64,000 nucleotides of DNA from Acidobacteriota bacterium (GTDB lineage Bacteria; Acidobacteriota; Terriglobia; Terriglobales; Acidobacteriaceae), in NCBI GenBank assembly GCA_021804655.1, contig JAJZHE010000001.1:2903-66902 (forward strand). Reading direction: 5' to 3'. A program made the translations under genes and the position numbers. Under the pieces are notes generated by a model that saw only the letters and a list, made by a program, of their open reading frames with translations, ran no database searches and was not told where the DNA came from. Each line of letters starts with the position of its first letter. The stretch's first letter is position 1. Shown here piece after piece: positions 2,181 through 31,753 of the stretch.

Positions 2181-4973
2181 ATGGCCAAGGAGATTTGTAT
2201 TTCCAGCACGCCGCATGAAACGCGGCTGGCAATTCTTGAAGACGATCAGCTTTCCGAGATTTATTATGAGCGTGAGAATGAATACACGCTGGCCGGCTCG
2301 ATCTACAAAGGGCGAGTAACCCGTGTTCTGCCTGGAATGCAGTCCGCATTTGTGGATATCGGCCTGGAGCGCGACGCGTTTCTGTATGTGACGGACTTCC
2401 TGGAGATGGAAGAGCCGGAGGATGCAGATGAACTGGAGCGTGCCGCTACTCAGGGCACTCCCATTCCGCAGCAGGTAACGCAAAATTCAGGCTCGCGGCG
2501 TGCTGTAGGACGGGAGCGTGGGAACGAGCGGGTGGCGCTTCCAGCGACCGAAGAAGCAGCGGAGTTGCACGAGGCGACGAACCTCGTTGCACCTGCACAG
2601 TCCGAAGGCCGTGTGAGCGATGGGGATGAGGCATCCGCAGCCGGCTCGCGCCGCATGCGTGGACGCCGTCGTCGCCGAGGCGGTCGAAATGGGCGCGACG
2701 ATCAGGCCGGGGAAGAACAATCCAGAGACGACCAGGCCACGCAAGTACAGAGTGGAGCGGAGCTGTTCGCGAAGCCGACGGTCTCGGCGGCATCGTCGAT
2801 TGTGTATGAGGCTGCTCCAGCAGCGGAGCGTTCATCTGCGGACGATGCGGAGATGAAGCTGAATGCCAGAGCATCGCGACGCAACAGCGGGCAGAGTGAT
2901 CGTTCGCCAGAGCAGCCTGCGAGTGCAACGCCGTTTGTTCTTCCTGGCGAGTCGCTGTCGCGATATGGCAAGACATCCGCGGTTGAGCCAGATGCTCGCC
3001 CGTCGGCTGCGCGTGCTGCTGCGGAACCCTCTGTGATCCCGGCGGCACGCACGGCGGCCAAGCCCTCGACGATGATCGAAACCGAGATTCAATGGGATGG
3101 AACCGGACTGCTGCCGGGTGAGTCGCTCGCACGTCATCGCAGCCAGCCATCGGTCACGGAGTTGGCTTCACCTGCGGTTGTAGAATCCGCCGAAGAACCA
3201 CCCATGGACATCATGGAAGAAGAGATGATCGAAGGATCGGCGCGTCATGACGCGGATCCGATTCCGCCCAGTGCATTTCGTCTGAAGGATCTCTTTGGCG
3301 GCCGTCGCAAAGACGATGGGGTTGAACCAGGGAAGAAGCAAGCTGTACGCGGGGTTTCAGCGCATGCGCACGGTGATGTGGACGAAGAAGAGATGGAGGT
3401 TGAGGAGTACGAGCTGTCGCATAAGGGAGCGCGCAAATCCAGCGGACAGGATGCTTCGGGTCGAGAGGACCAGACGCTTCAGCAGCAGGTGCGCTCGGGT
3501 GTGATTGGCGAGATGCTGCATGAGGTGCAACTGGAGACGCATACGCGTCCGGGTCGAGGGGGAGAAGCAACTCCTTCGCGCGATGGAGCCGGTCGTGGAA
3601 GACAGGGGCGCGGTGGGTCTGGTCGCGAAGGAGCAGGTCGGGCAGGGAATCGTGGTTCAGGTCGTGGTGTCGGCCGTGTTGATTCGCGCGAAGAACGTGG
3701 CGCCGGCGAGCGGAGTTCCGGCGAGAATCGCCGCCCCATGACGCGCCGAGCCGCCCAGACCTCGGACCTGCCCATTATCAGCGATCTGCTGAAACCGGGA
3801 CAAGAGATTCTGGTCCAGATTGCCAAGGAGCCGATCGCGCAGAAGGGTGCTCGGATCACCAGCCATATTGCGCTTCCGGGCCGTTTTCTGGTCTTCATGC
3901 CGACGGTCAGCCACGTGGGCGTGAGTCGCAAGATTGAGTCCGACGAAGAGCGTCAGCGCCTGAAGCAGATTTTGCTCAGCGAGCGCGGCGAAGCGACGGG
4001 AGGCTTCATCGTTCGCACGGCAGCCGACGGAGCCAGCGAAGAGGAGCTGCGCGCGGACCTTCGCTTCCTGATTCATCTGTGGAGTGAGATTCGGCAGCGC
4101 GCGGATAGTTCGCGTCCTCCGGCGCTGATCTATCACGACCTGAACCTGATTGAGCGTGTTCTGCGCGACCAGGTGAGCGATGATTTCTCTCAAATCTGGG
4201 TGGACTCCGAAGCGGATTACGAGCGGATTGTCCGCTTCCTGAATCGTTTTTCGCCGGACCTGGTTCGTCGCGTCAAACTGTATACAAAAGAAGTGCCGCT
4301 GTTTGAACACTTCGGCATTCAGGATGAAATCTCCAAAGCTCTGCGGTCGAAGGTGTGGCTGAAGAGCGGCGGCTCGATTGTGATCAATCAGACGGAAGCG
4401 CTGGTTGCGATTGACATTAACACGGGCAAGTATGTGGGCAAGACGGCGCGACTGGAAGACACGATTCTGAAGACCAATCTGGACGCGATTCCGGAGATTG
4501 TTCGGCAGATTCGCCTGCGGGATTTGGGCGGAATTATTGTGATTGACTTCATCGACATGGATGAGCGGAGGAATCGCGCGCGTGTGTTGACGGCTCTGGA
4601 GGAAGCGCTCAAGCAGGATCGCGCGCCGACGAAGGTACTCCAGTTCAACGACTTTGGCCTGGTTGCGATCACGCGCAAGCGCGTGAAGCAATCGCTGGAA
4701 CGCACGCTGAGCGTTCCGTGCCCGGTTTGCCAGGCGACGGGGATGGTCAAGAGTCCGGCGACGGTTGCCAACGAAATCTATACCGAGATGCGCAAGATGC
4801 GAAAACACTTTGAGCAAAGCGAAATCACGCTGCGCGTTCACCCGGAGACGGCGAAGGTGTTGAAGTCGGGCAGTGCGCGGTGGCTGGGTGAATTTGAGAC
4901 GTTGACGGGCAAAAGTGTACTGGTCAAAAACGACGCAACGCTTCATCCGGAGCAATTCGATATTCAGGGGTGA
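2181..4973 (+). CDS. rne: Rne/Rng family ribonuclease with a large disordered insertion in the S1 domain
   Basis: MAKEICISSTPHETRLA, GSIYKGRVTRVLPGMQSAFVDIG, EALVAIDINTG, RLRDLGGIIVIDFIDM, Zn-link CPVCQATG; SD-like gaaagg before ATG 2181. Confidence 0.9.
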   Translation: MAKEICISSTPHETRLAILEDDQLSEIYYERENEYTLAGSIYKGRVTRVLPGMQSAFVDIGLERDAFLYVTDFLEMEEPEDADELERAATQGTPIPQQVTQNSGSRRAVGRERGNERVALPATEEAAELHEATNLVAPAQSEGRVSDGDEASAAGSRRMRGRRRRRGGRNGRDDQAGEEQSRDDQATQVQSGAELFAKPTVSAASSIVYEAAPAAERSSADDAEMKLNARASRRNSGQSDRSPEQPASATPFVLPGESLSRYGKTSAVEPDARPSAARAAAEPSVIPAARTAAKPSTMIETEIQWDGTGLLPGESLARHRSQPSVTELASPAVVESAEEPPMDIMEEEMIEGSARHDADPIPPSAFRLKDLFGGRRKDDGVEPGKKQAVRGVSAHAHGDVDEEEMEVEEYELSHKGARKSSGQDASGREDQTLQQQVRSGVIGEMLHEVQLETHTRPGRGGEATPSRDGAGRGRQGRGGSGREGAGRAGNRGSGRGVGRVDSREERGAGERSSGENRRPMTRRAAQTSDLPIISDLLKPGQEILVQIAKEPIAQKGARITSHIALPGRFLVFMPTVSHVGVSRKIESDEERQRLKQILLSERGEATGGFIVRTAADGASEEELRADLRFLIHLWSEIRQRADSSRPPALIYHDLNLIERVLRDQVSDDFSQIWVDSEADYERIVRFLNRFSPDLVRRVKLYTKEVPLFEHFGIQDEISKALRSKVWLKSGGSIVINQTEALVAIDINTGKYVGKTARLEDTILKTNLDAIPEIVRQIRLRDLGGIIVIDFIDMDERRNRARVLTALEEALKQDRAPTKVLQFNDFGLVAITRKRVKQSLERTLSVPCPVCQATGMVKSPATVANEIYTEMRKMRKHFEQSEITLRVHPETAKVLKSGSARWLGEFETLTGKSVLVKNDATLHPEQFDIQG

Positions 4974-18902: not shown

Positions 18903-21900
18903 ATGCCAGGTATGCGCTATGACTCAAAATGTGGTCTTCAACTGGTAGGACCACTAAAATCGTTCGTTCACCGTGCGGTCCATCGACTGGGTGCATCGGA
19001 GAACTCTCGTTCTTCCTGCTTCATTGCGTTGCAGAGTGCAACTCTTTGCGCAGTATTGCTCCTGTTGGCGACTTTCTTTGGTGGCACTCGGGTCGCTCGT
19101 GCACAGGAGTTTCGCGGCACGATCTCCGGTACCGTCATGGATGCCAGCGGAGCCGTCATTCCTGGCGCTTCCATCACGGTGCACGAAGTGAGCACGGGAA
19201 CAACTAACCACACGGTCAGCGACGCTGCTGGTGAATACGTGATTCCGTTTCTGCTGCCGGGTGAATATTCCATCCGCGCGACGGCAAACGGCTTCCAGGC
19301 AATCGAGCGGACGGGCGTTCCGCTCCAGTCGCAGCAACATGCCGTGATTGACCTGCACATGCAGGTCGGCTCGGCAACGGAGTCGGTGACGGTGACCGGC
19401 GCTCCACCGCAGCTTGATTCGGCCAACGCTGCAATTGGTTCGGTCATCGATACGCAGTCGGTGGCGGACCTGCCGCTGAACGGACGTACGCCGACGACGC
19501 TGGCGGAACTGACGCCTGGCGTGATCACGACGGCGGCACCGCAGCAGATTCATCCGTTTGACAACAATGCTGGCAACTCGTGGTCGATGGGTGGAACGCC
19601 GAATCAGGTGAGCGAAGTGCTGCTCGATGGTTCGCCGGATCTTACCTTGCTGGGTGCTCTTGCCTACGCGCCGAGCGAAGACACGGTGGCTGAGGTTTCC
19701 GTGCGACCGTTTGATACGGATGCCAGCTTTGGCCATACGATTGGCGGCGTGGTTAACCTGGTGACCAAGAGCGGTACGAATGAGTTTCATGGCACGGCCT
19801 ATGAGTTTGGCCAGATCTCGGGCATTGATGCCAACACCTACTTCAACAATCGCAGCAATAAGCCGACGCCGGTCTTCCATTTCAATCAGTACGGCCTCAC
19901 CTTTGGCGGGCCGGTACGGATTCCCAAGGTCTATGACGGGCGCAACAAGCTGCTTTTTTTCTTTGCATTTGAAGGGCTGAAGGATTCGACGCCGAACACC
20001 GCGACGTTGACGGTGCCGACGGACAGCGATCCGCTGCTGGGCACTTCTTCCGGCGGTGAGCGTGCGGGTGATTTCTATCAGACGCTTGCTGCGGGTTGTC
20101 CTACCGGCTTTGCCAACGATCCGGGTTCTGCTGCTGCGATGTGCAATCCGAGCGGCAAGAACACCAGCCCGTATCCTGATCCCAACCAGCTCTACAACCC
20201 CTATCAGGTCACAGTCAACGGATCGTCGTACACCCGTGCGCCGATTCTGAAGAACCAGATCACCAGCGCCGGACCGCTGAACTCCATCGCGCAGGCGTAT
20301 ATGAAGCTCTTTCCGTCGCCCAACAATAGTCCGAATGCTGCCGCCGACGGGCAGGACAACTACATCGCCAATGCACCCAGCGTGGACGATTATGACAACG
20401 AGTTTGGGCGCCTGGATTATAACGTCAGCGCAGCCGATCACGTTTTCTTTGACATGCGTCACAACTTCCGCAGTCAGATCAAGAACAACTACTTTGGAAA
20501 TGGCGCAACCGGGACCATTCTGGTGCGCGAAAACTGGGGTACATCGCTTGATAACGTCTATACACTCAACTCGACGACGATCTTCGATACTCGTCTGAAC
20601 TGGACCTATTTCAACGAGGTGCACAGCACTCCGGCAACTGCCTATAGCCCGAACAGCCTTGGTTTTCCGGGCTACATGCAGTCAGCCAGTGAACTGGTGC
20701 AGTTGCCCTTCATCAACTTTCAGACCGGCAACAGTTGCGGCGGTCACAGCAGCTACCAGTGTCTGGGCGATACCGGTTCGGCGCTCGACCCGAGCACCAG
20801 CTACCAGGTCTTCACGGACATGGTGAAGGTGATCGGTCGTCATACGCTGAAAGTTGGTTTTGACGGTCGTCAGTACCGCATCAGCATCCAGAACTTTGGC
20901 AACTCTTCCGGCAGCTTCAGCTTCAACTCTGGATTTGTGGAATCCGGAACAGGTGCCGCATCGCAGACTTTTGGCGGTGATCTGGCCACCTTCCTGCTCG
21001 GTCTGCCGGCTGGCGGCCAGTTTGACCTGAACGCTCGCGCCGATTATCACCAGTACTATATCGGCTCGTTTGTGCAGGACGACTGGCGCGTGACGGACAA
21101 TCTGACGTTGAATCTGGGCATTCGCTACGACATTGACACGCCATTCCGCGAGAAGCTGGGACGGACGGTCAACGGCTTCAACCCGACGGCGGCGATCAAT
21201 TATGCCAGCACGCCGGCGTTTTCTCCCGTGACGGTCTCCGCAGACGGCGGCAACTACTCGATCAACAATATCAATACCCTCGGCGGATTGACCTTCCCGA
21301 ACGGTCCGAATGGCGCGGTCTACGCCACCAACAACGGCTTCTTCAGCCCGCGTATCGGCTTTGCCTGGAGCGTAAATAACAAGACGGAGGTTCGCGGCGG
21401 CTTCGGCATCTTTGTTCAGCCAGAGACGCTCTCGAATCTGAACTCGCAGGGACAGTATTCCTCGGCGGCGCTTTCCAACCAGGAAGGCTTCAGCGCTTCG
21501 ACACAGTATGTTGCGTCAACCAACAACGGCGAGACTCCGGCTGGTTCGCTCAGCAACCCGTTCCCTAGCGGCTTCCAGCAGCCGCAGGGATCGTCGCAGG
21601 GTGCGAACACCTTCCTGGGGCAGGCGATCAGCTTCCTCGCACCGGTTGAGCACGATCCGTACTCCGAGCGTTGGAATATAGGCGTTCAGCGTGCGATTAC
21701 GGCCAATGACATGGTCGAACTGATGTACGTTGGCAACCATGCACTTCATCTGCCGGTGGAGATTCAGGACCTGAACTCACCGTTGCTCCCGTTCCTGACC
21801 ACGAATCCCTATCGTGACCAGAGCATTGCAAGCGCGTACAGCCAGTCGGTCACCAACCCCTTCTATCAGACGTTGGGAGCGACCAACACGACAGGTGTGA

Positions 21901-22757
21901 ACCAGTCGAAGACGGTTCCGTTTTCGGCTTTGATTTCGGGCTTTCCACAATTTGGCAACAGTGCAGTGAACGAAGAAAACCAGACGATCGGCGAGTCTTT
22001 CTTTGAGGATTTGATCGCTCACTGGGAACATCGCGCATCCCATGGCTTGACGTTGACTGCCAACTACAGCTTCTCCAAGCTGATCGAGCAGGATACCTAC
22101 CTCAACAACGAAGACACGCAGCTCACACGGCGGGTCTCTCCGTTTGACCACACACAGCATTTCACCCTGGGCGGGACCTACCAGTTGCCGTTTGGCAAAG
22201 GGAAGATGTTCGATTTTGGTGGCAGCCGCCTGTGGGATGAGATTCTTGGCGGTTATGTCATCAACGGCATCTATCAGTATCAGTCCGGTTCGCCGATTGA
22301 GTTCACTGCGGATATCCCGCTCCAGCCCGGAACCACGCTGCGTCAGATATCCAACCAGCCGCGCAATGCCTCTGCGGTTGGCTCTGGCAATCCTGCGCTG
22401 AGCACGAAAGCGTTTGTGACCGGCAACTCTGCGGCCTGCCCCAGCTCGGGCGCGTGCGATGGAAGCCAGTTCATCAACGGGCAGTACGCTTTCCATCTGC
22501 GCACTCTGCCGCAGACGCTCTCCTGGGTTCGTCAGGATGGATACAACAATCTGGACGCATCGATCCTGAAGGATTTCAACTTCGGTCATGGCGCATACTT
22601 CCAGTTGCGCTTCGAAACGTTCAATACGCTGAACCATGCGGTTTTCAATGCGCCGAATGTGAACAGCGCAACGTCGAGCGACTTCGGATACATCACGAAC
22701 GTTGCCCAGAACAGCTTGCCGCGTCAGGTGCAGATCGGCGGCCGTATCGTCTTTTAG
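18903..22757 (+). CDS. TonB-dependent receptor (Oar-like, N-terminal carboxypeptidase-regulatory-like domain)
   Basis: GTISGTVMDASGAVIPGA, DLPLNGR, VTKSGTNEFHG, QDDWRV, SPRIGFAW, C-terminal Phe. Confidence 0.92.
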   Translation: MPGMRYDSKCGLQLVGPLKSFVHRAVHRLGASENSRSSCFIALQSATLCAVLLLLATFFGGTRVARAQEFRGTISGTVMDASGAVIPGASITVHEVSTGTTNHTVSDAAGEYVIPFLLPGEYSIRATANGFQAIERTGVPLQSQQHAVIDLHMQVGSATESVTVTGAPPQLDSANAAIGSVIDTQSVADLPLNGRTPTTLAELTPGVITTAAPQQIHPFDNNAGNSWSMGGTPNQVSEVLLDGSPDLTLLGALAYAPSEDTVAEVSVRPFDTDASFGHTIGGVVNLVTKSGTNEFHGTAYEFGQISGIDANTYFNNRSNKPTPVFHFNQYGLTFGGPVRIPKVYDGRNKLLFFFAFEGLKDSTPNTATLTVPTDSDPLLGTSSGGERAGDFYQTLAAGCPTGFANDPGSAAAMCNPSGKNTSPYPDPNQLYNPYQVTVNGSSYTRAPILKNQITSAGPLNSIAQAYMKLFPSPNNSPNAAADGQDNYIANAPSVDDYDNEFGRLDYNVSAADHVFFDMRHNFRSQIKNNYFGNGATGTILVRENWGTSLDNVYTLNSTTIFDTRLNWTYFNEVHSTPATAYSPNSLGFPGYMQSASELVQLPFINFQTGNSCGGHSSYQCLGDTGSALDPSTSYQVFTDMVKVIGRHTLKVGFDGRQYRISIQNFGNSSGSFSFNSGFVESGTGAASQTFGGDLATFLLGLPAGGQFDLNARADYHQYYIGSFVQDDWRVTDNLTLNLGIRYDIDTPFREKLGRTVNGFNPTAAINYASTPAFSPVTVSADGGNYSINNINTLGGLTFPNGPNGAVYATNNGFFSPRIGFAWSVNNKTEVRGGFGIFVQPETLSNLNSQGQYSSAALSNQEGFSASTQYVASTNNGETPAGSLSNPFPSGFQQPQGSSQGANTFLGQAISFLAPVEHDPYSERWNIGVQRAITANDMVELMYVGNHALHLPVEIQDLNSPLLPFLTTNPYRDQSIASAYSQSVTNPFYQTLGATNTTGVNQSKTVPFSALISGFPQFGNSAVNEENQTIGESFFEDLIAHWEHRASHGLTLTANYSFSKLIEQDTYLNNEDTQLTRRVSPFDHTQHFTLGGTYQLPFGKGKMFDFGGSRLWDEILGGYVINGIYQYQSGSPIEFTADIPLQPGTTLRQISNQPRNASAVGSGNPALSTKAFVTGNSAACPSSGACDGSQFINGQYAFHLRTLPQTLSWVRQDGYNNLDASILKDFNFGHGAYFQLRFETFNTLNHAVFNAPNVNSATSSDFGYITNVAQNSLPRQVQIGGRIVF

Positions 22758-22855: not shown

Positions 22856-24493
22856 ATGAGTCAGTTTGATGCTTTTCGCCGCAGCTTCCTGCGTACAGGT
22901 GCGGCCGGTCTTGCCGCAGCTTCATTTCCAGCCGCTTCTTTTGCCGCCGCCTCGTCCAATGCAACGGTGGAATCTCTCCGTGCCGATGGCATCTTTCATG
23001 TGCATCAGTACCAAGCGACAGGTGACGGAAAGACGCTGGATACGCGTGCCATTCAGGCGGCGATTGACGCAGCAGCACAGGCTGGCGGTGGGGTGGTGCT
23101 TTTTCCGGCGGGGAACTATCTTTCGTTTTCGCTGCGGATGAAAAGTTTTGTCCATCTGCACCTGATGCAGGGTGCGACGCTGATCGCAGCGGACTCGCCG
23201 TTACCAGGGCAGTCAACCGGCTACAACGGCGGGGTCTACGATGCAGCCGAGCCGAACACGGCATGGAATGCCTTTCAGGACTACGGACACAATCACTGGC
23301 ACAATTCGTTGATCTGGGCGGAAGACATTCACGATTGCAGCATCACCGGCACAGGCTTGATCTGGGGACGTGGACTGTCAAATGGCCGCGGTCGCAAAGG
23401 GGATGGCGCGCCGTTTATCGCCGAGCAGGTCGGCGTGGGCAACAAGGCCATTGCATTGAAAAACTGCCGCAATGTGCTGCTGCGCGATTTCTCGATTCTG
23501 AAGGGCGGCCACTTCGGCATTCTGCTCACGGGCGTCGATAACGTCACTATCGACAACCTGAAGATCGACACGGACCGCGATGGCATGGATATCGATTGCT
23601 GTCAGAATGTGCGCGTCACCAACTGTACGGTGAACTCGCCGTGGGACGATGGCATCTGTCCGAAGTCCAGCTACGCGCTTGGCTATGCGCGCCCGACGCG
23701 CAATGTCACGATCTCCGACTGTTTTGTGACGGGATGTTATCAGCTTGGCAGCGTGTTGGATGGAACGTTTCGCAAATATGCGCCAGAGGATCATATTCCG
23801 CACACAGGGCGCATCAAGTGCGGCACGGAATCGAATGGCGGATTCATCAATATCACGATTGCCAACTGCGTTTTTGAAGGCTGTCAAGGTTATGCGCTGG
23901 AGTCGGTTGACGGCGCGCTGCTGGAAGACGTGACCATCACCAACACGACGATGCGGGATCTGGTGACCGGGCCGATCTTCATGCGTCTTGGCTCGCGGCT
24001 TCGCGGTCCGGCAGGCAAGACGCAGGTCGGCACGCTGCGGCGCATCCTCATCAGTAATCTGGTCTGTTACAACGCGCCTCCTCGATTTGCATCGATTTTG
24101 ACAGGCATTCCCAACTCTTCCATTGAAGATGTGAAGCTCTCGGATATTTATGTGGAAAGCGCAGGTGGAGTGGCAACGTCCGTTCCCGATCTTCCGGAAG
24201 ACGAAAATCAGTATCCCGATCCGAATCGCTTCGGCGAAACGCCATCGTATGGGTTTTATCTCCGACATCTTCGCAATCTGGAGATGAGCCACGTAGAGGT
24301 TGCGCTGCGTCAGCCGGATGTGCGGCCAGCTTTTTCGCTGGTGGAGGTGGATCGCGCGGATTTCTTTGCCATTACCGCGGCGCGCACGCACGGGAATGCT
24401 TTCGCACTCAACAACGTGACGGACCTGCGCATCGGCTGGAGCCGCGCGGCTGACGATATCGCGCTGGCCAGTGTAGCTTCACGCACCCTGTAA
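22856..24493 (+). CDS. Glycoside hydrolase family 28 (polygalacturonase/rhamnogalacturonase-like), Tat-exported
   Basis: RRSFL Tat motif; GDGKTLDTRAIQAAID, DRDGMD, WDDGI, RIKCGTES. Confidence 0.88.
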   Translation: MSQFDAFRRSFLRTGAAGLAAASFPAASFAAASSNATVESLRADGIFHVHQYQATGDGKTLDTRAIQAAIDAAAQAGGGVVLFPAGNYLSFSLRMKSFVHLHLMQGATLIAADSPLPGQSTGYNGGVYDAAEPNTAWNAFQDYGHNHWHNSLIWAEDIHDCSITGTGLIWGRGLSNGRGRKGDGAPFIAEQVGVGNKAIALKNCRNVLLRDFSILKGGHFGILLTGVDNVTIDNLKIDTDRDGMDIDCCQNVRVTNCTVNSPWDDGICPKSSYALGYARPTRNVTISDCFVTGCYQLGSVLDGTFRKYAPEDHIPHTGRIKCGTESNGGFINITIANCVFEGCQGYALESVDGALLEDVTITNTTMRDLVTGPIFMRLGSRLRGPAGKTQVGTLRRILISNLVCYNAPPRFASILTGIPNSSIEDVKLSDIYVESAGGVATSVPDLPEDENQYPDPNRFGETPSYGFYLRHLRNLEMSHVEVALRQPDVRPAFSLVEVDRADFFAITAARTHGNAFALNNVTDLRIGWSRAADDIALASVASRTL

Positions 24494-24498
24494 CGCAC

Positions 24499-27400
24499 CT
24501 ACTGCACGGTTACGGTCACCTGCGTGCTTTGCGTGATGGATCCCGTGGGGCTGGAGGCAGTGATCGTCACCGTGCCGGTGCTTTGCGGCGGAGTTGTGGA
24601 AGAGCTGCTTCCGCCACAACCCAGCATGGCTGAAAATGCGATGAAAGCCACGATCAAGACAGCTATCCAACGTCCGTTGATGTTCACGATTTTTCTGCGT
24701 GCAAGGATGAACAGCGGGAGCGTGAATATCATTCCCAGCCAACGGAGTCCGGCGATTGTGCGGCTTGCGGCTGCGCTGGTTGCAGCAGAAGCAATCGTCA
24801 CGTTTCCGGTTTGTGCAGTGGTGGCGCCGCTGAAGGTGAACGAAGCTGGCACGAAGGAACAACTTAAAGATGCGAGCTTGCTGTTGCAACTCATCGTTAC
24901 ATTGCCCTGAAACCCACCGGTCGGTGTAACGGTCAGGGATACGGCCTGGCTTCCGCCGGCGGTCAGAGTAAGATTTGTCTGCCCTGCAACGAGCGAGTAG
25001 TCGGCCTCAGCGACGGTGATCGTGCTCGATGTGGAAGCTGCATCGTCGGCATTTGCCACAAACGCTGCACTCAGCGCGTTGGCTCCGGGCTGGAGTGTTG
25101 TGGTCAGCGTGGCGGTTCCGCTTGCTGTGAGCGGCGCGCTGCCTAGAGTCGTTCCGCCATCCATGAATTGAACCGAGCCACTGGGTGCGATGCTGGATGG
25201 GGAAGTAACGGTTGCGGTCAGCGTGACGCTTTGCCCTGGATCGATTTGCCCGGTGGAAGCGCTGAGGGTTGTCGTCGTCGGCGCGGTGGTCACGGTGAGT
25301 GTTCCCGGGACCAGCGTGATGGTGTAGTTGGCTGCCAAAAGCGTACCGGCTGCAATCGTGATCGGATAGTCGCCCGGCGCGGATGCTGCCACGGCACTGG
25401 TCGTCAAGACGGGTGCGCCGCTGACCACCGCAGCGCTGTCTCCGTGCACAAATCCGGTGATCGTATCCAGCAGTGGCGGGTTGGCGTCGCCGAAGATACG
25501 CGTTGCATCCTCTGCTGCAACGGTGAGCACGGCTGCGGTTACCTGCACAGTTGCGCTGGCGTTGCTGATGCCGGTGCTGGTTGCTGTCAACGTATACGTT
25601 CCCACGCCGCCGAGGGAATTTCCGTTCAACGAGAACGTGGCAACGCCACCGATTGCGTTTGTCGTCATGGATTCGGAAAAGGATTGCGGGCCGGTGATGG
25701 TGAGCGTCACTGGTGCGGTGCTGCTTGTAACGGGTGATCCGGTTGCGTCCAGCAGATTTATCGTCACTGTTCCCAATGCGCTGCCATAGATGGCTGTCGT
25801 CGGCACTCCGCTCGCAATCGCAAGCTGTGTCGGCGTTGGTTGTTCGGTGATCCGCGCAGGCAGAACCTGCCAAAGCTGGTTGGTTCCGATGGGCGTAATC
25901 CAGTCGGTGTGGATGCTGGCTGGCGCTTCCAGTTCCGGACTTCCGCTTGCGGTGTTGCTGGCCAGCACAAGTGTGCTTCCCGTCTGCTCCACGGTGTATT
26001 GGCCGCCGCCGGCTGTGACCAGATTCCATTGCTGCGAAGTGGCTCCGCTCGACGCTGGTTTCAGCATCACCGTAGTTCCGGATGCTGGCGCGTTGCCAGC
26101 GTCGAGCGCGTACGTTGTCCCTGCGGCGGCGGCACCTGCATCCGTCAAAATCAGGTGGCCGTGGCCGTCGCTTGCAATTGTCCACTGCTGATCGGTAAAA
26201 GTGCCGCCATCGCTTGCCGACAAGCCGAGGGGAATGCCATTGCTGCCTGGAATGCCCGCAGTTCCGAGCACCTTGCCTGTGGCCACGTTCACCAGTTTGT
26301 AGCTTAATGTGGGGTCGAGCCTGCCGCCGAGCGCGTCCACGCCACTCAGAACCGCCGAGTAGTTTGCCGCACTCGTGTTCGTCGCACCTGAGGTATCGGC
26401 ATTGTCAAAGAGTGTCAGCCCATTCCATACGAAAGTGGCGTCAGGCTGTCCATCGCCATTGGTGGTTGCTCCACCGCTGCCGATAGTGTTCACTCCCTCG
26501 GGATCCCAGTAGTCCACTCCAAGGCTCAGATGGTTGGGCAGGTTTTTCATCACACCCGTCAGGTCGATGAGGAACTGCCTTTGTCCAGCGACCGTGGCTG
26601 GATACCAGGGATCGTTGCTCTCGAAGCCGCTCTCGTAGTGCTCGCCGGTTTCCATCACGAAGATGGGTACTCCGATGGAAGTTGCTGCGTCGCTGAGCAC
26701 TGTCTCTTCCACCGGCTTGTTTCCGGGATTTGACTGCGTCGCTTGTGCGTTGGTCAGAGGCCCGTGAAAGAACGGGTAGTAGCTCTGGCAGATGGCGTCA
26801 AAGGGAATTGAGTTCTGCTTCGCTTCGCTGAAGAAACTTGTCAGATTCCATGCAGGAGTGATGTGAATGCAACGAATTGGCGGCGGAATTGCAGCACCCA
26901 AGGACGTGTCGCTGGCTGCATCCAGAACAGCCTGCATGCCCTGCTGCTGCACGGCGGCAAAGCTGCTGAAGCTGGTGCCGGGCGAAGCCAGCGTGCCGAA
27001 GAGTCCGGTATCCACTTCGTTCCCGATGCTGACCATATCCGGCATCGCACCCGCCGCGCGATAGGCTTCGACCTCGCTCTTCACGTAGCTGTAGACGGAG
27101 GACTCAAGCTGCGTGAGTGACTCAGCGGCCCAAGCGCCGGGGATCGACTGCGACGAGCCGCCATCGAAGAAGAGCGTGAGCACGACGGCCATGCCAAGCT
27201 GTTTTGCGCGCTTCGCCAGATTGATATCCGCGTCGTCCGTCTCTGCGTAGCAGCCATTGCCGGTGCAACTGGCCGGTAACGCGCTGGTACCGCTCAACGT
27301 GAGTGTCTGGTAGGGTGGCACCGAAGTCGGGCGGATGCGCACGGTGTTCACGCCGTGATTTTTCATCATTTGCAGCACGTCTGCCGTCTGGCTGGCGTCC

Positions 27401-27987
27401 TGCCACCAGGGCAGCGCAGCGGCTACTCGATCTGCCTCCTGCTTTTCGAGGAGAGCATTATCCATTCCGCGGAAAAACGCTGGACGCAGCAACCATTGCT
27501 GACTTTGTGTCGGAGCGCCGCCTGCTGTGTTCAAGCCGAGAGGCGCACCAGCGCTCGTCGATTGTGCGCTCAGCACCATCTGGCCAGACTGGTTGGTCAG
27601 TGTCAGATATCCGTTCGTGGCAGCGGTCACTGTCCATTGTTGTGTTGCCTGCGACAGGGAGCAGGTGTTCTGGACCACGCTGGATCCGCTGGCAGAGAGA
27701 CAAAGCCCGTTTCCCGCGTTGCTGATGGCCCACAGCCCGCTGGGCAGTCGCGTCAGCGCCCATCGTTGCGTCAAGCTGCTGAAGTTGCGCGTCTCCACGG
27801 TTGCAGCCGTTCCGTTCTGCGCTGTGATGGAGCCGCCGTCAGCCTGCAAGCCTGACAACTGATTGACCAGTGTGTAGCTTTGCCCGTCGATCGGAGCAGG
27901 ATTCACAGGTTCCTGTGGCTGCTGCGCAAGGGCTGAGAATGCCACTGCCAGAGATGAAATCCCTAGGATCAAACTCTTCCACTGCAT
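24499..27987 (-). CDS. Multidomain GH53 endo-beta-1,4-galactanase (ricin-B lectin - GH53 - ricin-B - Ig/MBG/Big domains - C-terminal membrane cassette)
   Basis: GVNTVRIR, SIGNEVD, QSYYPFFHG, VMETG, YWDPEG; QxW repeats; Thr-rich Ig repeats. Confidence 0.85.
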   Translation of the reverse strand: MQWKSLILGISSLAVAFSALAQQPQEPVNPAPIDGQSYTLVNQLSGLQADGGSITAQNGTAATVETRNFSSLTQRWALTRLPSGLWAISNAGNGLCLSASGSSVVQNTCSLSQATQQWTVTAATNGYLTLTNQSGQMVLSAQSTSAGAPLGLNTAGGAPTQSQQWLLRPAFFRGMDNALLEKQEADRVAAALPWWQDASQTADVLQMMKNHGVNTVRIRPTSVPPYQTLTLSGTSALPASCTGNGCYAETDDADINLAKRAKQLGMAVVLTLFFDGGSSQSIPGAWAAESLTQLESSVYSYVKSEVEAYRAAGAMPDMVSIGNEVDTGLFGTLASPGTSFSSFAAVQQQGMQAVLDAASDTSLGAAIPPPIRCIHITPAWNLTSFFSEAKQNSIPFDAICQSYYPFFHGPLTNAQATQSNPGNKPVEETVLSDAATSIGVPIFVMETGEHYESGFESNDPWYPATVAGQRQFLIDLTGVMKNLPNHLSLGVDYWDPEGVNTIGSGGATTNGDGQPDATFVWNGLTLFDNADTSGATNTSAANYSAVLSGVDALGGRLDPTLSYKLVNVATGKVLGTAGIPGSNGIPLGLSASDGGTFTDQQWTIASDGHGHLILTDAGAAAAGTTYALDAGNAPASGTTVMLKPASSGATSQQWNLVTAGGGQYTVEQTGSTLVLASNTASGSPELEAPASIHTDWITPIGTNQLWQVLPARITEQPTPTQLAIASGVPTTAIYGSALGTVTINLLDATGSPVTSSTAPVTLTITGPQSFSESMTTNAIGGVATFSLNGNSLGGVGTYTLTATSTGISNASATVQVTAAVLTVAAEDATRIFGDANPPLLDTITGFVHGDSAAVVSGAPVLTTSAVAASAPGDYPITIAAGTLLAANYTITLVPGTLTVTTAPTTTTLSASTGQIDPGQSVTLTATVTSPSSIAPSGSVQFMDGGTTLGSAPLTASGTATLTTTLQPGANALSAAFVANADDAASTSSTITVAEADYSLVAGQTNLTLTAGGSQAVSLTVTPTGGFQGNVTMSCNSKLASLSCSFVPASFTFSGATTAQTGNVTIASAATSAAASRTIAGLRWLGMIFTLPLFILARRKIVNINGRWIAVLIVAFIAFSAMLGCGGSSSSTTPPQSTGTVTITASSPTGSITQSTQVTVTVQ

Positions 27988-28395: not shown

Positions 28396-28462
28396 GCAAG
28401 TGGAATCTCTGGCAAGATAGCCTTCTCGCCGTGTTCAGGTTCACTTTTTGGAGGCAACATAC

Positions 28463-31400
28463 ATGAAAACGAATACATTCCGCAGGCTTGCATTTGTGTT
28501 TGCATTGCTTGCCGCTGCTGCGGGATCGGTAAGGGCGCAGAACGCAAATTCGGGTGAAATCAAGGGCCAGGTGACAGACACGACTGGAGCCGCCATCACT
28601 GGGGCCGATGTCGTTTTGCTCAATACCGATACGGGCATTCAGTCCACCACTCAGACAAATCATGCCGGCATTTATGATGTTCCGTCACTGCCCACCGGTC
28701 ACTACAAAATCACTTATAGCAAGCCGGGATTCCGCGATGCAGTTCGCCAGGGGATTACGCTTTCCGTGGCCACGATTGGAGTCAACGCTACGCTGGAGGT
28801 TGGGCAGGCTACGCAAGAGGTAGTCGTGACTGCCGAGGCCCCTCTGCTGCAAACGGAGGATTCAGCACAGCATCTTGATCTCGACGCAAAAGCGGTGCAG
28901 AATGCGCCGATTGTCGGTGGCATCTGGTACAACGAGCTGACGAACCTGTTGCCAGGAGTCAACGGCGGCGGCAGCCAAAGCGCATCGGGGCAGGGAATCG
29001 GCGTCAACGGAACGGAAGGCTACTCTGGAACGTTTCTCATTGAAGGATCGATTGCGCAGGAGCCGCGCGATGCCAACGCGAGCGACAACTATCCGCCCCC
29101 CGATGCGATCGGCGAGGTGAACGTACAGACGAGCAACTTTGGCGCGCAATACGGCGATGGTGTTGCCGACTTCAACGTGATGTTGAAGAGCGGAACCAAT
29201 CAGTTTCACGGCTCGCTCTTCGAGTTCAATCAGAACAACGACTACAACGCGCGCAGTTACTTCGATCGCGCTCCACTTGTGGTTGCGCCGCTGCACTGGA
29301 ATGAGTTTGGCGGCAGCATCGGCGGACCGATCCTTCATAATAAGCTGTTTTTCTTTTTCACCTTCCAGGACAATCCAAACACTTCGTCGAGCGTTTACAC
29401 GACCACCGTGCCGACGCAGGGACAGAACGGGACAGTCAACATGGAGGCCGGATGTTTCCCGGTGCCGGTCAAGAATCCCAGCACTGGGCAGAACTATCCC
29501 AACAACTGCATTACCTCTGGCATGGACCCGGTTGCGCAGAATATCCAGAAGTATTTTCCCGCGCCAAACTTTCTGCAATCCGGAAGCAATCCTTATCTGA
29601 ATAACTACACCGTTGTCGCCGGCAGCACCACCAGCTCCAAGTGGTATGTGGGCAAGGTCGATTACACTCCAAGCCAGAAAAATCGTATCTCCGCTTCATA
29701 CATGATCTTTCCCATCGGACTCACGTATAACGTGGATGGATTCTGTTCGTTGGGTTTTGATTGCACACAAGGCAATAACTACAACGAAGACGGTCAGGTC
29801 ACCGATGTGTGGACAATCAACGATCGCATGGTGAACGAAGCACGCGTGGGCGGAGTGCGCGAAGTGGATAAGTACATTCCTCCGACCTATAACAAAGGTT
29901 ATCCGACTTCGCTCGGCATCGAGCCGACGTATGGCGCGGATGCGCCGGGCAATATCTTCCCGACTGTCACCATCAACAGCGGTGGATCGATCGGCGGAAT
30001 CGGCATCAATGGCGGCGTTCACGCTTTGCTGGCTGACGGCGCACTGGCCGAGTCTGACATCTTCACGCTTATCAAAGGGCGTCATACCATCAAGATGGGC
30101 GGCGAATTTGACAAGAGCTATCAAAACTACACCGGTTGGGGAGATATCTCTTCGGGTAACTTCGTCTTCAGCGGTGTTTCCACCGGCGTTCCCTATGCCG
30201 ACTTTATGCTGGGCGATGTTTATGGCTGGTATGTCTATGATGATGTCGAGACGGGCGCACGCATGTGGAATATGGGAGCCTTCCTTCAGGATGACTACCA
30301 GATCAGTCCAACTTTCACGCTCAACCTTGGCCTGCGCTATCAGTACCAGGGGGGATGGAGCGAAGTGCAGAACCGCTGGGGAACGTTTAGCCCACACGTG
30401 GTGAATACAGGGCAGTACGCACCTGCGGGAACGCTGGGAGCGATGGTTTACGGCGGTCAGGATGGTCGCAACACCATTCAGAACGGGATCAATCAGTGGG
30501 TGCCGCGCATCGGATTTTCGTGGCAGCCGTTTCCCAAATGGGTGGTGCGCGCCAGCTACGGCATCTCCGATCAGCCCTGGTCTGTTGATCCTTATACGGC
30601 AGCGCTTGGCATCGGCCTCAATCCAAACGGCAGCAAGGGATATGGCAATACAGCCGCGTTCAAGTTGAAGAATGGACCCGGACCGGGCGCAGTTTCCTAT
30701 CCTTCTCTGTCGAACCTTTCCAACTCGCAGTACAACTACCAGGATGTGACGTATTATCCGCAGCATCGTCCGAGCACCTATTACCAGGAAGTCTTGTTCT
30801 CGGTGCAGCATGAGTTGCCGTTCCGGATGCTTATCGATACCAGTTATCTCTTCACCAAGGGAACGCACCTTGGATTTACGCGAGATATCAACCAGGTTCC
30901 CGAAGCAGATTTGTCCGGCTATGGCACAAACTATTCCAGTTGCTACAACGATCCCAGCGCGTATCCACTCTTCTGCTCGATTGCGGGCGTGCTCTTCGAT
31001 GGCTACTCCAACTACAGCGCACTGCAACTTCGCGTGCAAAAAGCCACGTCTCACGGCTTGAATTTCCTGTTCAACTACTCCTGGTCAAAGACCATGGATT
31101 CAGGCACGGGTTCGGGCAACAACGCGAGCGTGGATACCTGGCAGAACGCCTTCAACATCGCTTCCAACTACGGCCTGTCCACGCTGGACATGCGCAACTC
31201 CATCAATGGTTCCGTCACCTATGAACTGCCTTTCGGAGCTGGAAAGCGATTTGCTCTGCACGGCGTCACGGATCAGGTGCTGGGCGGGTGGCGCGTCACC
31301 GGCATCTTCCAGGTGCACAGCGGCATTCCCTTTACGGCAACCACTTCCAACAACGGTACGGACGACAGCGGTTCAGAGGCCAATCAGTGCGGCTGTGGAT

Positions 31401-31753
31401 TTGGCTGGCTGCCCAATGTTGTCGGCAACACATCCGTTTCCAATCCATCCGTCAATCAGTGGTTCAACACCGCTGCATTCGCGACGCCAGCAACAGGCAG
31501 CTTCGGCAATGAACGAAGGAATTCGCTCATCGGTCCAAACTGGCGCGATCTTGACCTCAGCCTCGGGAAGACATTCCAATTTCCGCGAGGCATCAACTTT
31601 GAAGTTCGTGCGGATTCCTTTAATTCCTTTAACCACCCGAACTTCTCACAACCGGATGCTGCAACTGGAACCGGAGTCGTTGGCGGAGGCGTGATTACCA
31701 GCACAGCCGCCAGCGGCCGCGACATCCAGCTTGGGGGGCGCTTGACCTTCTGA
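28463..31753 (+). CDS. TonB-dependent receptor (Oar-like)
   Basis: GGAGG SD; GEIKGQVTDTTGA, KSGTNQFHG, QDDYQ, PRIGFSW, C-terminal LTF. Confidence 0.92.
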   Translation: MKTNTFRRLAFVFALLAAAAGSVRAQNANSGEIKGQVTDTTGAAITGADVVLLNTDTGIQSTTQTNHAGIYDVPSLPTGHYKITYSKPGFRDAVRQGITLSVATIGVNATLEVGQATQEVVVTAEAPLLQTEDSAQHLDLDAKAVQNAPIVGGIWYNELTNLLPGVNGGGSQSASGQGIGVNGTEGYSGTFLIEGSIAQEPRDANASDNYPPPDAIGEVNVQTSNFGAQYGDGVADFNVMLKSGTNQFHGSLFEFNQNNDYNARSYFDRAPLVVAPLHWNEFGGSIGGPILHNKLFFFFTFQDNPNTSSSVYTTTVPTQGQNGTVNMEAGCFPVPVKNPSTGQNYPNNCITSGMDPVAQNIQKYFPAPNFLQSGSNPYLNNYTVVAGSTTSSKWYVGKVDYTPSQKNRISASYMIFPIGLTYNVDGFCSLGFDCTQGNNYNEDGQVTDVWTINDRMVNEARVGGVREVDKYIPPTYNKGYPTSLGIEPTYGADAPGNIFPTVTINSGGSIGGIGINGGVHALLADGALAESDIFTLIKGRHTIKMGGEFDKSYQNYTGWGDISSGNFVFSGVSTGVPYADFMLGDVYGWYVYDDVETGARMWNMGAFLQDDYQISPTFTLNLGLRYQYQGGWSEVQNRWGTFSPHVVNTGQYAPAGTLGAMVYGGQDGRNTIQNGINQWVPRIGFSWQPFPKWVVRASYGISDQPWSVDPYTAALGIGLNPNGSKGYGNTAAFKLKNGPGPGAVSYPSLSNLSNSQYNYQDVTYYPQHRPSTYYQEVLFSVQHELPFRMLIDTSYLFTKGTHLGFTRDINQVPEADLSGYGTNYSSCYNDPSAYPLFCSIAGVLFDGYSNYSALQLRVQKATSHGLNFLFNYSWSKTMDSGTGSGNNASVDTWQNAFNIASNYGLSTLDMRNSINGSVTYELPFGAGKRFALHGVTDQVLGGWRVTGIFQVHSGIPFTATTSNNGTDDSGSEANQCGCGFGWLPNVVGNTSVSNPSVNQWFNTAAFATPATGSFGNERRNSLIGPNWRDLDLSLGKTFQFPRGINFEVRADSFNSFNHPNFSQPDAATGTGVVGGGVITSTAASGRDIQLGGRLTF

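Follow-up and report, generated by a model that had tools for sequence, protein, structure and literature searches.

Bacterial lipoproteins are classically made by Lgt, LspA and Lnt from precursors in which the lipobox signal (PROSITE PS51257) is placed at the N-terminus. NCBIfam release 20.0 (June 2026) also holds a model for a C-terminal region, NF058595 or 'invert_tail', described as 'lipo-invert putative C-terminal anchoring domain-containing protein' and having a curated cut-off of 37 bits. Another C-terminal region, MYXO-CTERM of the Myxococcota, carries an invariant Cys in a Gly-rich motif and is found on many Sec-exported client proteins per genome (PMC11980579). Lipidation of these proteins has been proposed, possibly by Lgt, followed by removal of the single helix by an intramembrane CPBP-type protease, the myxosortase MrtX, and the proteins are brought to the surface through type II secretion (PMC11980579). 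The Cys of MYXO-CTERM is located before the helix, the cytoplasmic end is rich in Arg, and the 'inverted topology' that Lgt would have to deal with is called a difficulty by the authors (PMC11980579). We have analysed a C-terminal tail encoded in a stretch of 64,000 nucleotides, here called the window, from an Acidobacteriota soil bacterium of the family Acidobacteriaceae (assembly GCA_021804655.1, contig JAJZHE010000001.1, positions 2,903 to 66,902 of the forward strand). The tail ends a protein of 1162 amino acids, read from the translation of the minus-strand open reading frame 24499-27987 (window coordinates), which is a glycoside hydrolase of family 53 (GH53).

The last 171 amino acids of the GH53 protein, used as a query against NCBIfam, matched NF058595 with 41.3 bits and an E-value of 1.6e-10. 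The same tail scored 42.8 bits in a six-frame search of the genome. The match covers tail residues 69-171, i.e. up to the final residue of the exported protein. No NCBIfam row was returned for the whole 1162 amino acid protein, so a scan has to be made with the tail or the DNA for the match to be seen. In the NCBIfam scan of the tail at E <= 1, invert_tail was the only model reported, and no LPXTG, PEP-CTERM, GlyGly-CTERM, MYXO-CTERM or type IX secretion system (T9SS) model was found; a mismatch to LPXTG, PEP-CTERM, GlyGly-CTERM and T9SS signals had already been noted in the original prediction, which was made from the DNA letters. The GH53 tail has the build of the NF058595 members seen in this work: helix, basic loop, helix, lipobox-like Cys and a short beta-strand end. 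Judged by this match, the GH53 tail is one more carrier of the catalogued lipo-invert family, the function of which is 'putative', and not a new system. The system had been called undescribed in the original prediction, and this part does not hold, because the curated model NF058595 already covers the tail.

The tail consists, in this order, of immunoglobulin (Ig)-like strands (DYSL ... NVTIAS), a hydrophobic segment, a basic loop of 10 amino acids, a second hydrophobic segment, the Cys, a linker and further strands. The second hydrophobic segment ends in A-M-L-G-C followed by GGSSSS, and 25 amino acids of beta-strand sequence close the protein. The terminal Ig-like domain split by a hydrophobic segment, RRK and a second segment ending in MLGC reads as originally described, and so does the Cys codon at 24616-18. 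The features of the tail are as follows, given as window coordinates.

24787..25002, minus strand: split Ig-like domain, first part (strands A-E), residues 996-1067 (AlphaFold strands at tail residues 5-76; profile match)
24700..24753, minus strand: helix 1 (transmembrane segment 1, TM1), residues 1079-1096 (AlphaFold helix at tail residues 88-106; uncharged hydrophobic core 1083-1096)
24670..24699, minus strand: basic loop RRKIVNINGR, residues 1097-1106 (sequence; cytoplasmic by the positive-inside rule)
24619..24669, minus strand: helix 2 (transmembrane segment 2, TM2), residues 1107-1123 (AlphaFold helix at tail residues 114-130)
24616..24627, minus strand: lipobox M-L-G-C, with the Cys1124 codon tgt at 24616-24618 (sequence; Cys invariance; PROSITE-like rule)
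24577..24615, minus strand: linker behind the Cys, rich in Gly/Ser/Thr/Pro, residues 1125-1137 (sequence)
24502..24576, minus strand: last two strands (F, G) of the split Ig-like domain, residues 1138-1162 (AlphaFold, structure alignment, profile)
24499-24501, minus strand: stop codon of the GH53 gene

A cassette of approximately 65 residues is thus inserted in the E-F loop, between the fifth and sixth strands, of the terminal Ig-like beta-sandwich. Helix 1 would serve as a stop-transfer segment running from periplasm to cytoplasm, and helix 2, which resembles a lipoprotein signal peptide in its h-region, would run from cytoplasm to periplasm. Cys1124 is followed by only 38 of the 1162 residues, and the signal at the N-terminus is of the signal peptidase I type without a lipobox. 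The usual location rule for lipoproteins, a Cys within approximately the first 35 residues of the precursor, does not hold for Cys1124. Two further Cys residues in the first part of the split domain, Cys1034 and Cys1043 (tail positions C43 and C52), are invariant across 61 aligned tails and are a probable disulfide pair.

Conservation was evaluated on these 61 tails and on 139 further cassette-bearing representatives. The Cys corresponding to Cys1124 is invariant in both sets (61/61 and 139/139); apart from it, only the residues corresponding to Cys1034 and Cys1043 are invariant in the 61 tails. At position -1, G, A or S is present in all 61 tails and in 138 of the 139 further tails, and position +1 is occupied by G in 53 of the 61 and 136 of the 139 tails, respectively. 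No positions of the module are better conserved than the Cys and the G/A/S and G on either side of it. In the 61 tails, TM1 and TM2 have a median length of 18 residues each, the basic loop measures 8 residues in the median and carries a net charge of +4 (from +1 to +9), and the stretch behind the Cys comprises 32-52 residues. When the sequences were started at the loop, 57 of the 61 tails fitted a lipoprotein rule like that of PROSITE PS51257. In the GH53 tail the segment from RRK through A-M-L-G-C fits this rule by a basic n-region, an uncharged h-region and A/G/S ahead of the Cys. The 33 best N-terminal lipoprotein candidates of the same genome include LVAGCGGGS, ALTGCGGSS and ALAGCGSSN, and the style of the tail sequence AMLGCGGSSSS, including the linker, is like theirs. 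The rule fit and the shared style both support the earlier claim that helix 2 and the LGC are lipobox-like.

The split fold was examined by structure prediction. The AlphaFold model of the tail, made from 61 sequences, has a mean predicted local distance difference test (pLDDT) score of 84. The strands at residues 5-76 score above 90, the helices at 88-106 and 114-130 score 52-79, and the terminal strands at 145-154 and 161-170 score 90-97. In structure alignments, 96-104 model residues spread across 5-171 superpose on single Ig-like domains of approximately 98 residues, an example being the linker domain of the Micromonospora sialidase 2ber (residues 405-502, Z 12.0, root-mean-square deviation (rmsd) 1.9). 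Residues 5-76 account for just 72 of the aligned residues, so the last strands must join the same sandwich in the model.

The split domain was also compared to unsplit domains at the sequence level. A profile was used for this comparison because BLASTP gave a significant alignment for the first part only. The profile aligned to unsplit domains as two collinear, abutting pieces. In one protein, profile positions 2-76 correspond to target residues 15-86 and positions 141/142-171 to residues 85-114; in a second protein, these pieces correspond to residues 59-132 and 130-159. By this profile comparison the cassette is shown to have been cleanly inserted into a domain which occurs unsplit elsewhere too. 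In two metagenomic homologs, P0021 (last 300 amino acids) and P0043 (residues 845-1129), a further complete Ig domain of the Big_3 type separates the Cys from the final two strands. In the model of this variant the final strands have pLDDT 80-97, and 98 residues were aligned over the model range 7-285 (Z 12.0, rmsd 1.7). The inserted Ig domain itself is poorly modelled, because it is covered by these two sequences alone. The extra domain in P0021 and P0043 implies that the piece behind the Cys can carry cargo. Both models show the predicted last two strands completing the split Ig fold.

The tail is by no means confined to the GH53 protein. The genome of the window (2.86 Mb, 87% complete) gave 8 NF058595 matches in the six-frame search, 5 of them above the cut-off, and all 8 tails have a common build in which the Cys and the loop Arg residues are invariant. 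The original prediction had proposed to look at the conservation of the Cys in homologous tails, at whether the terminal strands belong to the preceding Ig fold and at the number of tails in the genome; the invariant Cys, the agreement of the AlphaFold models with the profile on unsplit domains, and the 8 tails are the respective outcomes. A database search with the tail region retrieved 60 proteins, and the cassette was present in 55 of these. The carriers are GH53, GH28, FG-GAP/VCBS, sedolisin-type protease, SBBP-repeat and GDSL-lipase proteins, and their sources include, by name, Acidobacteriaceae, Terriglobales and Edaphobacter. One homolog, P0051, has a single C-terminal helix.

In the phylum, 28 of 301 sampled genomes have NF058595 matches above the cut-off. 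These tallies, as well as those for Lgt given below, take in one unpublished genome (G024), on which no conclusion depends. All 22 sampled genomes of the family of the window are among the 28, together with the two nearest sampled families of the class, and the genomes above the cut-off carry from 3 to at least 14 tails each. The remaining phylum gave weak NF058595 matches only, at a level that was also seen in 6 of 14 control genomes. Tails outside the class were looked for with the profile in the five Acidobacteriota genomes of other classes having the best matches below the cut-off, and no clear tail was obtained; two of the five gave, together, 3 partial weak profile matches with E-values of 5.7e-6 to 8.1e-5. 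The profile of 55 tails was furthermore run against 1.84 billion representative proteins, resulting in 19,131 matches at E <= 1e-3 and 5,247 at E <= 1e-10. In 139 of the best 147 new proteins the cassette sits at the very C-terminal end, and the remaining 8 are repeat proteins containing many Ig domains that are not split. The tail is real, well outside what chance would produce, and very widespread, and the lipobox reading of it is reasonable.

The enzymes for such a reading are encoded in the genome, with two genes for Lgt, one for LspA and one for Lnt, all over their cut-offs, in addition to LolA and two secretins. The two Lgt homologs are found at G000:C124:10194-10934 (+) and G000:C241:6674-7444 (-); one scores 150 bits and one is divergent with 71 bits. 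LspA (C124:27440-27868) and another tail gene (C124:35453-35797) share the contig with the first of these.

We consider that the GH53 tail is a lipo-invert anchor which is lipidated at Cys1124 and cut by LspA, leaving a lipopeptide held by the strands of the Ig domain, and we give this reading a probability of about one half. The N-terminal signal peptide would route the protein into Sec, helix 1 would halt the transfer, and the Arg/Lys loop would remain cytoplasmic. Helix 2 would then re-insert with the topology of a lipoprotein signal peptide and bring M-L-G-Cys1124 to the outer face of the inner membrane. This arrangement, with the body of the protein in the periplasm, helix 1 running out-to-in and helix 2 in-to-out, would follow from the positive-inside rule, and the predicted topology brings the lipobox to the site at which ordinary lipoproteins are processed by Lgt and LspA. 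Lgt would add diacylglycerol to Cys1124, and LspA would probably cut between Gly1123 and Cys1124. The resulting lipopeptide of 39 residues would stay bound, both its strands being integral to the Ig sandwich, and the enzyme would in this way be lipid-anchored by its C-terminal end. The lipidation, the cut by LspA, the tethering via complementing strands and any display at the surface are steps that we infer.

Several points weigh against this reading. The two-helix hairpin would remain on the enzyme after a cut by LspA, so that the enzyme would be held in the membrane even without the lipopeptide, and a lipid anchor would seem superfluous as long as the hairpin is there. The position after the Cys is G in 136 of 139 tails as opposed to 10 of the 33 N-terminal lipoprotein candidates, i.e. 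the CGG of the tail is stricter, and in terms of sequence this could reflect a different or an extra recognition step. A conserved motif ahead of helix 1, which might have marked a second cut, was looked for in the 61 tails and none is kept. The structural evidence for the split fold comes from prediction, and the same alignment underlies it. A natural two-gene version, with the enzyme and a small lipoprotein encoded separately, was looked for among short proteins matching the part of the profile behind the loop; there are 138 of these, and the four examined, all fragments or frameshifted, give no support. In the literature we found no paper or experiment on the lipo-invert tail. The mechanism of the original prediction stands in part: the fit to the lipobox and the membership of the strands in the Ig fold speak for it, and it is incomplete in having overlooked the hairpin retained on the enzyme after the LspA cut.

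A more far-reaching form of the mechanism would have LspA cut at Gly1123/Cys1124 and the hairpin removed or extracted. The enzyme would then consist of two chains and be anchored solely by the lipopeptide of approximately 39 residues, clasped via its two strands. Such a non-covalent 'inverted lipoprotein' might be passed to Lol or to type II secretion for display at the outer membrane or the surface. We put this form forward tentatively, as an idea with the odds somewhat against it.

In one rival explanation, the two helices are an uncut loop in the inner membrane, the Cys is either unlipidated or lipidated without cleavage, and the protein stays a single chain. Two helices suffice for anchoring in a membrane, classical substrates of Lgt and LspA have their signal at the N-terminus, and the four short matches examined contain no natural two-chain version. 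The helices are moreover poorly conserved in sequence, and their pLDDT is just 52-79. A plain hairpin anchor leaves unexplained, however, why conservation is highest at the Cys and its G/A/S and G neighbours, why 57 of 61 tails fit the lipobox rule, and why a single C-terminal helix, as in P0051, would not do. We regard this explanation as unlikely. Less likely again is a dedicated sorting enzyme in the manner of myxosortase, whereby the Cys is lipidated, an enzyme other than LspA cuts at the strict G-C-G-G and removes the hairpin, and the protein proceeds to the outer membrane or surface. The stricter CGG compared to the N-terminal lipoprotein candidates of the genome is in line with such an enzyme, as is the restriction of the tail to one class with 3 or more matches per genome, often at least 14, which resembles known pairs of signal and enzyme. 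There is also the precedent of MYXO-CTERM, with its invariant Cys, proposed lipidation by Lgt and subsequent intramembrane protease (PMC11980579). Against it, no candidate enzyme was identified, no signature motif is present ahead of helix 1, and the copy number of Lgt does not track the tail; the topology of the tail is already right for LspA, which makes a new enzyme unnecessary. A dedicated Lgt paralog was considered and rejected, as Lgt copy number does not go with the tail in the 301 phylum genomes. The tail-rich genomes G048, G111, G179, G189 and G239 have one Lgt each, and many tail-less families have 2-5.

The last explanation is that the end of the protein is a separate gene product or an artefact, i.e. 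a small lipoprotein made from an internal start, or a fusion of two genes by sequencing error. An in-frame GTG is indeed present in the loop of the GH53 gene, 23 codons ahead of the Cys, and gene callers give many short 'proteins' that start in the loop. The in-frame internal starts in the 8 tails of the genome all lack a preceding Shine-Dalgarno-like motif, however, and one of these tails has no start codon there at all; an internal translation start for the lipopeptide is therefore unlikely and was rejected. The build with a single open reading frame recurs across thousands of independent assemblies, and all four of the short matches examined are contig-end fragments or frameshifted large genes. 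We find this explanation very hard to credit. Frameshifts split several large tail genes of public assemblies (metagenome contigs L018, at 3091-3857 (+), L019 and L020) into two or three calls, and such genes give rise to spurious 'small lipoprotein-like' database proteins of 50-120 amino acids.

A small outer-membrane barrel (PF13505) was tried as a partner of the tail and rejected. A gene of this family is located directly 3' of 2 of the 8 tail genes in the genome and of 2 of the 39 listed tails in five near-complete relatives; these counts may be low, because PF13505 scores near its threshold. It is absent directly 3' of the GH53 gene. In the genome of the window the OMP_b-brl (PF13505) genes 3' of tail genes are found on C102 (L010:55-594, -) and, as a tandem pair, on C111 (L009:473-1270 and L009:1355-2053, +). 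The two barrel-adjoining tails in the relatives are both on very large proteins, with open frames of 2177 and 4056 amino acids. The small barrel is a feature of a subset and not part of the tail system.

The rest of the GH53 gene and its neighbours are listed below.

24499..27987, minus strand: whole gene, RicinB-GH53 endo-beta-1,4-galactanase with Ig-type stalk and lipo-invert tail (open reading frame, Pfam, PDB sequence matches)
27925..27987, minus strand: N-terminal Sec-type (signal peptidase I) signal peptide, residues 1-21, without lipobox (sequence read)
27493..27870, minus strand: ricin-type beta-trefoil lectin domain, residues 40-165 (Pfam PF00652 and PF14200)
26449..27471, minus strand: GH53 catalytic domain, residues 173-513 (Pfam PF07745, E 1.1e-40; PDB galactanases)
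25888..26301, minus strand: second ricin-type beta-trefoil region, residues ~563-700, borders approximate (additional RicinB_lectin stretches; PF24208 at 563-608)
25294..25527, minus strand: MBG_2 stalk domain, residues 821-898 (Pfam PF18676, E 3.6e-19)
25012..25266, minus strand: Big_3_5 bacterial Ig-like stalk domain, residues 908-992 (Pfam PF16640, E 1.2e-15)
22856..24493, plus strand: convergent downstream gene, GH28-like beta-helix pectinase (Pfam Beta_helix, Pect-lyase_RHGA_epim, Glyco_hydro_28; start codon inferred)
18903..22757, plus strand: TonB-dependent-receptor-like outer-membrane barrel gene, CarboxypepD_reg and OMP_b-brl_4 (Pfam)
28448..31753, plus strand: second TonB-dependent-receptor-like outer-membrane barrel gene, CarboxypepD_reg, Plug and OMP_b-brl_4 (Pfam)

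The plain N-terminal signal peptide of the original prediction was confirmed from the sequence as a Sec-type signal of residues 1-21, ending in ALA followed by QQ, and the closest orthologs have an N-terminus of the same kind. PF07745 scores 140 bits on residues 173-513 against a cut-off of 24, and endo-beta-1,4-galactanases of the PDB, such as 7osk, 1r8l and 1fhl, were matched by sequence with E-values down to 4.7e-17. Going by these matches, the protein belongs to glycoside hydrolase family 53 as an endo-beta-1,4-galactanase. Orthologs were found in two other Acidobacteriota metagenome-assembled genomes, one unclassified and uncultured (L014, 55% identity) and one from Bryobacterales (L015, 47%). 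Both have the RicinB-GH53 core, without the Ig/MBG stalk and without the tail, and the second trefoil is present in the Bryobacterales ortholog as well. As these orthologs end after the catalytic or the second lectin domain, the tail appears to be a modular add-on, probably an anchoring module that was gained by, or lost from, an otherwise conserved GH53 enzyme.

The GH28-like protein encoded at 22856-24493 (+) has a twin-arginine-like motif, FRRSFLRTGAAGL, close to its likely start. On account of this motif the protein may be exported folded by the twin-arginine translocation (Tat) pathway, unlike its Sec-type GH53 neighbour. The longest open reading frame call for the GH28-like gene, from 22454, probably begins too far upstream. 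With the two TonB-dependent-receptor-like genes and the GH28-like gene around GH53, the locus looks suited to the use of pectic galactan, which suggests envelope-tethered breakdown of this polymer.

In acid soils the Acidobacteriaceae count among the main degraders of polymers. We know of no account of how they hold large glycanases, proteases and adhesin-like proteins at the envelope. With the tail on several to at least 14 exported proteins per genome, and on thousands in public data, it is probably the main anchoring device of this family. If the internal lipobox is processed and the anchor is held by strands, the accepted rules of lipoprotein biogenesis would be extended, and a compact C-terminal lipid tag for protein display would be at hand. 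If the lipopeptide is the only anchor, this would be a route used by thousands of acidobacterial exoproteins. The GH53 gene itself is a modest result, being a normal member of its family.

Compared to known systems, the tail resembles NF058595 in every respect that matters: it scores over the cut-off, it is at the extreme C-terminus, it has the order helix, basic loop, helix, Cys and two strands, it occurs in many copies per genome, and it is found in the same bacterial family. There is no essential difference, the new element being the carrier, a GH53 galactanase. With the classical lipoprotein signal the tail shares a basic n-region, an h-region of approximately 18 residues, and an invariant Cys preceded by G/A/S and followed by a Gly/Ser linker, as well as the same predicted topology and enzymes encoded in the genome. 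It differs from the classical signal by lying approximately 1100 residues into an exported protein, behind a stop-transfer helix, and by having only approximately 40 residues after the Cys, which are part of a domain begun before the cassette.

The sorting signals PGF-CTERM (archaeosortase), PEP-CTERM (exosortase), GlyGly-CTERM (rhombosortase) and LPXTG (sortase) end in a helix and a basic end, which helix 1 and the basic cluster of the tail resemble, and the tail would share with them the principle of anchoring exported proteins C-terminally. The tail has, however, no signature motif ahead of helix 1, its basic cluster is not C-terminal, and no NCBIfam model of these systems was matched at E <= 1. 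In chaperone-usher pili an Ig-like fold is completed by a strand from another polypeptide, and Ig domains of the PapD/FimC/Caf1M type are among the structural matches of the tail model. The parts of the tail are made as one chain and would be two only if cut, and neither chaperone nor usher nor polymerisation is involved; the likeness to donor-strand complementation is one of fold and concept only. In the polysaccharide utilisation loci of Bacteroidota, glycoside hydrolases are surface lipoproteins with an N-terminal lipid acquired via an ordinary signal. The GH53 locus is similar in that an endo-glycanase adjoins TonB-dependent-receptor-like genes and a lipid anchor would hold it at the envelope, whereas the GH53 protein starts with a plain Sec signal and has its candidate lipid site at the opposite, C-terminal end.

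Among published systems MYXO-CTERM comes nearest, being likewise a C-terminal region with an invariant Cys, a Gly-rich motif and many clients. The tail differs from it in having two helices, with the Cys after the second and the chain continuing for 38 residues, and no MYXO-CTERM model was matched at E <= 1. The second helix of the tail restores the normal lipoprotein topology, and the topological difficulty of MYXO-CTERM would thereby be removed.

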